Shown in pieces: positions 40,771 to 42,018 of a DNA stretch of 64,000 bases. This DNA comes from Rhynchopus sp. YZ270_cl-10 (lineage: Eukaryota): positions 1,550,001 to 1,614,000 of the forward strand of contig OZ037839.1 in assembly GCA_964035575.1 (NCBI GenBank), in the 5' to 3' direction. The notes under the pieces are model-generated. The model did not search any database and was not told the origin of the DNA. It saw nothing but the letters and a program-made list of their open reading frames with translations. The stretch's first letter is position 1; each line of letters begins with the position of its first letter. The position numbers and the translations under genes are program-made.

Positions 40771-41906
40771 CACCTCGTCCCGAGTTTTTGTCCGAGAATG
40801 CGATTACTAATTAGTTACTCCACTAATTAAATCGAGCAAAAATATGGTGAACTCAGCGGAGCCCGGTTTTAAAAGTGCCAAAAACGACCTTTTCGTTTTG
40901 ACGCGTTGTGAGTTCCTCAAATGCAATTTTGAAGGGTAAAAAATTCGGGTTTTCTAAGCACATGCAGTGCTAAGTTAAAAAAAATCGCGAAAAAAAAATA
41001 CAAAAATTTTGTGTTGGAAGCTCGGAACCCAGAAACGTCCAATGGTGAAGTTTTTTTCTGGTTTCGTTGCACCCTGTATTTTTACTTAAAAATCAAGACA
41101 AAGTGATTTTTACCTGGATTTTTGCCTGTATTTTACTAGGGATTTTCCCTTAGTAAAATACAGGGGAATTATCTAACACCTCGTCCCGAGTTTTTGTCCG
41201 AGAATGCGATTACTAATTAGTTACTCCACTAATTAAATCGAGCAAAAATATGGTGAACTCAGCGGAGCCCGGTTTTAAAAGTGCCAAAAACGACCTTTTC
41301 GTTTTGACGCGTTGTGAGTTCCTCAAATGCAATTTTGAAGGGTAAAAAATTCGGGTTTTCTAAGCACATGCAGTGCTAAGTTAAAAAAAATCGCGAAAAA
41401 AAAATACAAAAATTTTGTGTTGGAAGCTCGGAACCCAGAAACGTCCAATGGTGAAGTTTTTTTCTGGTTTCGTTGCACCCTGTATTTTTACTTAAAAATC
41501 AAGACAAAGTGATTTTTACCTGGATTTTTGCCTGTATTTTACTAGGGATTTTCCCTTAGTAAAATACAGGGGAATTATCTAACACCTCGTCCCGAGTTTT
41601 TGTCCGAGAATGCGATTACTAATTAGTTACTCCACTAATTAAATCGAGCAAAAATATGGTGAACTCAGCGGAGCCCGGTTTTAAAAGTGCCAAAAACGAC
41701 CTTTTCGTTTTGACGCGTTGTGAGTTCCTCAAATGCAATTTTGAAGGGTAAAAAATTCGGGTTTTCTAAGCACATGCAGTGCTAAGTTAAAAAAAATCGC
41801 GAAAAAAAAATACAAAAATTTTGTGTTGGAAGCTCGGAACCCAGAAACGTCCAATGGTGAAGTTTTTTTCTGGTTTCGTTGCACCCTGTATTTTTACTTA
41901 AAAATC
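40769..41906. repeat. 406-bp satellite, left part (~2.8 units)
   Basis: AACACCTCGTCCCGAG occurs at 40769, 41175 and 41581. Confidence 0.97.
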
Positions 41907-41961
41907 ACCAACGATTTCTAAAGCTACAGTTTCTGTACTTCATTGTTTCTGTACTTCATTG
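41907..41961 (+). other. Spliced-leader exon copy (41907-41945) plus truncated SL relic (41946-41961)
   Basis: ACCAACGATTTCTAAAGCTACAGTTTCTGTACTTCATTG matches the euglenozoan SL core CAGTTTCTGTACTnnATTG and the diplonemid 5' AACCAACGATTT, as recalled. It is followed by TTTCTGTACTTCATTG and then GTAT. Confidence 0.88.
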
Positions 41962-42018
41962 GTATACCCCTCCCACACTCACCACCACCCATCCCCTTGT
42001 CTCCCCCGCCCAACCAAA

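Follow-up and report, generated by a model that had tools for sequence, protein, structure and literature searches.

Spliced-leader and leader-relic sequence at the 5' end of a non-LTR retrotransposon of the diplonemid Rhynchopus

Leader-bearing retrocopies and the Rhynchopus element

The closest described parallels come from dinoflagellates. As relayed in PMC3229502 and PMC12014239, Slamovits and Keeling (2008) described retrogenes headed by DinoSL and DinoRL sequences and produced by cycles of trans-splicing and re-integration. According to these accounts, the relic stands behind a full spliced leader (SL) and begins just past the leader's own AG, as the sequence-only reading of the present locus had noted, and most retrogenes carry one relic and some carry two. 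PMC3229502 (2011) regarded this pairing of SL trans-splicing with mRNA recycling as apparently unique to dinoflagellates. The other relevant group is the trypanosomatid CRE clade (SLACS, CZAR, CRE1/2), which targets SL RNA genes (PMC12278014, PMC3636483); as characterized there, these elements combine a single ORF, a reverse transcriptase (RT) with a C-terminal restriction-like endonuclease (RLE), internal repeats, a poly(A) tail, a target duplication and leader sequence at the 5' junction, this leader being target DNA at a fixed site within the SL RNA gene.

The window, by which we mean the whole 64,000-nt stretch of Rhynchopus sp. YZ270_cl-10 that was analysed, contains an intact non-LTR retrotransposon of 8.3 kb inside a 406-bp satellite (Table 1). 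It shares the listed features of the CRE clade as published and differs in that its target is a satellite, its leader sequence is confined to the 5' end and its duplication is short and not of SL sequence. Likewise, it resembles the dinoflagellate retrogenes in its leader and post-AG relic, whereas the passengers in the published dinoflagellate descriptions are host genes and here the leader heads an autonomous retrotransposon itself, in a euglenozoan. Compared with those descriptions, the euglenozoan heads also show two usable AGs, from which relics of 16 and 22 nt result, and one insertion event is marked by a poly(A) tail together with a target duplication. The mechanism that we favor is already known for dinoflagellate retrogenes, and its placement on an autonomous euglenozoan element is apparently unreported: we found no report of leader or relic heads on such elements in the open-access literature (subscription journals and Repbase Reports lay outside the search). 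The present data extend the pairing of SL trans-splicing and recycling to euglenozoans, and onto an autonomous element.

Table 1. Features of the element and its flanks in window coordinates
Feature	Position	Strand	Remarks
406-bp tandem satellite, upstream flank	40768..41899	+	2.8 units; without SL match or Rfam family
Pyrimidine-rich flank	41860..41899	+	72% C+T; predicted polypyrimidine tract for the leader AGs
Left target-site duplication	41900..41907	+	7 nt; 8 if the A common to the leader is counted
Spliced-leader copy, SL nt 2-40	41907..41945	+	diplonemid type, 40-nt SL; AGs at 41922-41923 and 41928-41929
16-nt SL relic	41946..41961	+	same as SL nt 25-40; begins after CAG
GTAT	41962..41965	+	equals SL intron nt 1-4; possible SL donor remnant
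Single intact ORF	42019..49830	+	2603 aa from first ATG; frame open from 41902
Internal CAG/CAA repeat region	43326..43876	+	tandem-repeat analysis
OTU-like protease, weak match	44437..44697	+	E 0.038, below Pfam cut-off
Reverse transcriptase domain	45961..46557	+	PF00078, E 9.8e-15; motifs GVQQGDP, YLDD
CCHC knuckle and restriction-like endonuclease motifs (RHD, E, KPAD, D)	47401..47691	+	motif pattern of PMC12857005
Poly(A) tail	50140..50189	+	about 50 nt; 55 A with 5 from the duplication
Right target-site duplication	50190..50197	+	
406-bp satellite, continuing	50190..64000	+	runs to window end; 35 of 36 whole units identical, the other being the interrupted one

The order of the domains, with an RT followed by a CCHC knuckle and then a PD-(D/E)xK-type endonuclease in a single ORF, is that of the R2-group (RLE) elements, and the endonuclease motifs follow the published order (PMC12857005), except that the spacing between them differs by one residue and KPD is replaced by KPAD. 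A PDB search gave weak R2 and L1 matches only, and the homologues in databases are unnamed or 'hypothetical', the Atlas matches being unnamed RT clusters. The cluster to which the protein belongs counts 44 members. The element likely belongs to the CRE clade, an assignment that we presume from its motifs, the RT tree having had no named CRE reference. By eye, we also take a stretch at about residues 2165-2280 to be a second OTU-like region; Pfam gave nothing there, and its alignment to the first such stretch failed (E 0.14).

The poly(A) tail and target duplication of the window copy are marks of retroposition, and the intact ORF, the long tail and the perfect duplication suggest that the insertion is likely recent. 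Its target differs from that of the SL-gene-specific CRE elements: there is no leader at the 3' junction, and as the satellite unit has neither a leader match nor an Rfam family, the target is not an SL gene. No Rfam family reached the gathering score in the window, and a scan of 40700-42100 gave three hits at chance level; the satellite thus does not correspond to any known array of RNA genes. Directly in front of the element lie the 40 nt of the satellite unit that are richest in pyrimidines, and only 7 of the 406 possible 40-nt windows of the unit reach 70% C+T; on account of this position, the leader of the window copy may itself be spliced. As for the satellite in its own right (40768-64000), its units are identical in the assembly, yet variants occur in sequencing runs, and the unit carries a hairpin-forming inverted repeat (e.g. 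41124-41165); it may be an array located at a centromere or near a telomere, or else a consensus into which variant units have collapsed.

At the 5' end of the element, the letters agree exactly with the layout of leader, post-CAG 16-mer and GTAT that the sequence-only reading had given. Its identification of the leader stands, while the description of the leader as a full exon does not, the true SL being 40 nt and the copy lacking nt 1. This length follows from an A that precedes the base equivalent to 41907 in SL-gene contigs (run X6; locus L091); if the A at 41907 is instead assigned to the target duplication as its final base, which is also possible, the copy lacks SL nt 1-2. The copy is identical to a Diplonema sp. 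SL (PMC3795323) at 36 of 39 nt in a by-eye comparison, and 38 of the 40 letters at 41906-41945 agree with the exon in an SL-gene array from a near relative (L091). The SL intron starts with GTATGG (runs X2 and X6; L091 and L107), and the contigs of X2 and X6 in which the exon runs into these letters indicate that the organism has SL RNA genes in multiple copies, with a GT donor; in X2 they are deeper than the element. The 709 aligned contigs of run X1, whose run type is unrecorded, have their highest summed depth on the leader, as expected if the leader heads many mRNAs in a transcriptome-like sample, with the depth being that of contigs and not of reads. These comparisons support the window leader being the host SL, of diplonemid type.

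The relic repeat stands out in the window. The 16-mer occurs exactly twice in the 64 kb, at 41930 and 41946, and a TRF tandem-repeat row covers 41929-41961. The raw count of period-16 repeats (481) was swamped by microsatellites; once these were excluded, the relic repeat was the sole perfect 16x2 tandem.

Recurrence of leader-relic heads

A metagenome scan for two leader cores lying 0-24 nt apart found 85 loci, which comprise 77 contig-end concatemers forming one series, an unrelated tandem (L070) and seven leader-relic loci from seven different samples, each with a 5'-truncated kinetoplastid-type SL followed by a relic. All eight relics in these seven loci lie directly behind the leader and start right after a leader AG, as does the window relic, which is counted apart. 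Seven are 16 nt long (CAG) and one, in L084, is 22 nt long and corresponds to the leader's upstream AG. The scan pattern is blind to relics shorter than 16 nt, so that the peak, at 16, coincides with the lower limit of the search; lengths of 17-21 and 23-40 were detectable, and none was seen outside the artefact series. The concatemers (within L001-L085), whose units mostly measure 21, 33 or 34 nt, are found no more than 33 nt from a contig end, and 0 of their 87 breaks fall at an AG. They are likely assembler or primer artefacts, which could be mistaken for relics in SL surveys.

RT ORFs follow three of the seven heads (L013, L023 and L055). Behind the heads of L019 and L036, which have a 103-nt head in common at 82%, lie long ORFs with no Pfam match, and the short sequences downstream in L003 and L084 (125 nt and 300 nt) contain no RT. 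The RT of L055 is only 21-26% identical to that of the window, as against 38-52% for database homologues, and hence at least two element lineages are involved, the tree itself carrying a long-branch warning. L055 (2-6085) also presents two related RT ORFs head to tail, 43% identical, of which the second is headed by the leader and relic. The upstream flanks of the five loci with enough flank are not pyrimidine-rich (0.40-0.60).

The element or a part of it was present in 11 of 23 listed sequencing runs, belonging to seven studies, and contigs of four of these (X1, X2, X5 and X6) were aligned to the window. The list of 23 named no RNA run as a holder of the element, which has no bearing on its expression. 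The sequence-only reading had looked to reads for the 16-nt duplication outside the assembly, and the exon-relic junction is indeed present in contigs of X5 (records 20 and 21) and X6 (record 23), which represent diverged copies; these start at 41933 and so have 13 letters on the 5' side of the junction, against a bridging threshold of 31 letters. In one X5 contig the relic is joined to 42000 through a common TTG, without GTAT. A contig of X2 (record 14) spans 41916-42498 with zero substitutions and six extra letters that are absent from the indel table; these presumably sit in the high-depth part of the leader, where alone they would escape that table, and would fit a 22-nt relic of a sister copy. 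Another contig, of X1 (record 3), starts at 41945 with five unmatched letters before it, which excludes an SL+16 head for that contig and leaves a single leader or a 22-nt relic. Three contigs join the leader to points further downstream in the element. The join of satellite to leader was absent from the seven aligned X2 contigs, where the depth of the element was only 2.3, too low for this to speak against the join.

Origin of the head

We judge it probable, with good confidence, that the leader and 16-nt relic were acquired through two rounds of trans-splicing and reverse transcription. An earlier copy would have been reverse-transcribed from an SL-capped RNA, which would account for a leader in DNA. 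A read-through RNA of that copy would then have been trans-spliced at the CAG inside its genomic leader, yielding the sequence of SL, relic and element. The element endonuclease would nick the T-rich strand of the satellite, with the T run priming on the poly(A) tail, and the RT would proceed to one or two bases short of the cap, which presumably blocks it. Several observations count against such a cycle: four of the seven other heads are without an RT in the available sequence, the flanks of the other loci are not pyrimidine-rich, the X1 contig departs from the SL+16 head, the scan had its lower limit at 16 nt, and L116 has a 5' duplication that breaks off-AG. The sequence-only reading had likewise proposed trans-splicing of the element transcript at the leader's own AG followed by full reverse transcription; the former is the best fit to the relics, all eight of which follow an AG in seven independent loci, and the latter has to be amended to a near-complete copy. 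Similarly, the suggestion that each new copy brings its own splice acceptor applies to the AG, whose use in RNA is predicted, and fails for the pyrimidine tract, which must come from the flank.

Could the head have arisen in one step? RTs of the R2 group jump between templates. If such an enzyme halted within the leader while copying the element RNA, and resumed on a free SL exon or another SL RNA from its 3' end, it would produce a leader plus a partial leader at once. The single nucleotide of microhomology (G) at the exon-relic junction would suit such a jump, as would the 5' duplication in L116, which breaks off-AG. Yet a jump gives no reason for stopping exactly after an AG, as the window relic and all eight relics elsewhere do, and the intermediate relic lengths that the scan could have detected are missing; we therefore regard a jump as improbable. 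Still less credit is due to a 16-bp slippage duplication in DNA or an assembly or library artefact, which we hold to be very improbable. Artefact-like leader concatemers are admittedly common (77 of the 85 loci), and the satellite units are identical in the assembly although the runs show variants. The concatemers, however, differ from the relics in unit length, in their closeness to contig ends and in never breaking at an AG; moreover, the junction of the window recurs in diverged copies in runs of two other studies, and both ends of the duplication fall on splice boundaries. Neither jumping nor slippage accounts for the AG boundaries, and this disfavors both.

The sequence-only reading had further placed the parent copy next to SL sequence, possibly in an SL gene. 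As a version of the cycle and not an alternative to it, a founder copy inside an SL RNA gene would make GTAT the SL donor, provided that its target duplication took in the first 4 nt of the intron and no more. These letters are indeed SL intron nt 1-4, a match expected by chance at a fixed place about once in 250, and CRE elements are reported to insert in SL RNA genes (PMC12278014). A diverged family member (X5 record 20) has GT+GTATA after its relic, thus also starting with GT, at a depth of 2.1 that may reflect an error, and in L108 an RT ORF, 3' UTR and A run are followed by SL nt 11/12-39. Against this, the comparison with the intron start, which that reading had called for, agrees for four letters and ends there; none of the seven other heads has GT after the relic; one X5 contig, as described above, lacks GTAT; and the window copy has duplicated 7-8 nt of a satellite, a non-SL target, where a parent in an SL gene would need about 33 nt. 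The suggested look for copies inside SL arrays yielded no RT match among 31 SL-gene copies on three contigs of the near relative. Further, PMC10161547 gives 745 genes in a SLACS-like orthogroup of D. papillatum against 110 SL genes, which makes it likely that SLACS-like elements are dispersed in diplonemids. An SL-gene founder thus appears doubtful, and rather unlikely.

Under the trans-splicing cycle, the 5' end of the element bears comparison with devices that define the 5' end of an RNA transcribed with its flank. R2 and ingi/L1Tc elements use an HDV-like ribozyme and Pr77 for this purpose. For the window element, in which Rfam gave no ribozyme family, the host spliceosome would act instead, via the captured leader AG. 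Such an AG stands close to the start of every full-length copy, so the element itself would not have to supply any means of 5' processing. This offers a possible answer to the question of where promoterless non-LTR elements under polycistronic transcription obtain a capped full-length RNA. From the number and length of relics, the generations of a retrotransposon family and its choice of acceptor could also be counted directly; relic number would not simply grow, since truncation at the 5' end, or use of the CAG that a 22-nt relic contains, would reset the count. More tentatively, as a possibility that we would not yet put at even chances, leader capture could be the normal means of 5'-end renewal for RLE retrotransposons in free-living euglenozoans, with internal AGs serving as a portable processing signal in several independent lineages, CRE-like elements having been freed from SL-gene targeting and 5' ends recording host cap chemistry (in kinetoplastids the copies would stop at nt 5 or beyond, in this diplonemid at nt 2-3).

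The stop positions bear on the latter idea. Ten kinetoplastid-type copies of the leader lie outside SL genes and have flanking sequence upstream; 0 of 10 reach nt 1-4 and all start at nt 5-12, a count that leaves out L019 and L036 (contig ends) and L122 (virus-like). Leader nucleotides carry base methylations in cap 4, and these starts fit an RT stop at the cap-4 methylations. The portions of PMC9326685 and PMC13393146 drawn on here name cap 4 and do not name base methylations. The 5' stops lead to a testable prediction on the cap structure of diplonemids.

Leader copies in giant viruses and other records

Scans for single leaders returned 5 viral and 34 genome loci. The viral loci fall on one 237,777-nt viral contig (L086, L087, L089 and L090) and in a giant-virus bin (L088), with the leader at about 4001 in each record. 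All five have the complete 39-nt diplonemid-type leader from nt 1, with neither intron nor relic. An AAAA(A/T)TGA motif starts 26-27 nt upstream of it, and the ATG of an ORF follows after 32-64 nt; PMC5294985 gives AAAATTGA as the mimivirus early promoter. L087 encodes a Pox_VLTF3 protein and L086 a Bro-N protein. It is likely, judging from these sequences, that a cytoplasmic giant virus encodes the leader of its host in its own DNA, and a likely reading is that viral mRNAs for this reason start with the leader without trans-splicing. Our literature search found no report of virus-encoded leaders, and this observation may exceed the retrotransposon finding in novelty. Two AT-rich contigs in bacterial MAGs (L095:4001 and L122:2373) also have near-complete leaders just before an ORF, that of L095 with the AAAA(A/T)TGA motif upstream, and these are possibly further euglenozoan viruses.

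Among the genome loci, L117 has a single-leader head on an RT ORF and is the only one to count as such, L108 and L115 having been ruled out as leader-headed RT elements because the RT lies upstream of the leader. In L108 (3170-3220) the RT ORF, 3' UTR and A run end on the leader with no intron after it. We take the junction at leader nt 11/12 to be the CRE-type insertion point, and we read the locus as a CRE-type insertion whose target was a leader not within an SL gene, perhaps the head of another copy. In L115 (4001) a leader from nt 5 lies between two copies of about 70 nt, and the duplication does not break at an AG; L116 (4001-4066) is a tandem of the leader plus 10 nt whose break is not at an AG either, which indicates that there are routes to 5' duplications besides AG splicing. 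Finally, euglenozoan SL RNA gene arrays occur in records labelled as bacterial (L091-L094, L096-L106, L109-L114, L118-L121 and L123-L124), and those bins accordingly contain protist DNA.
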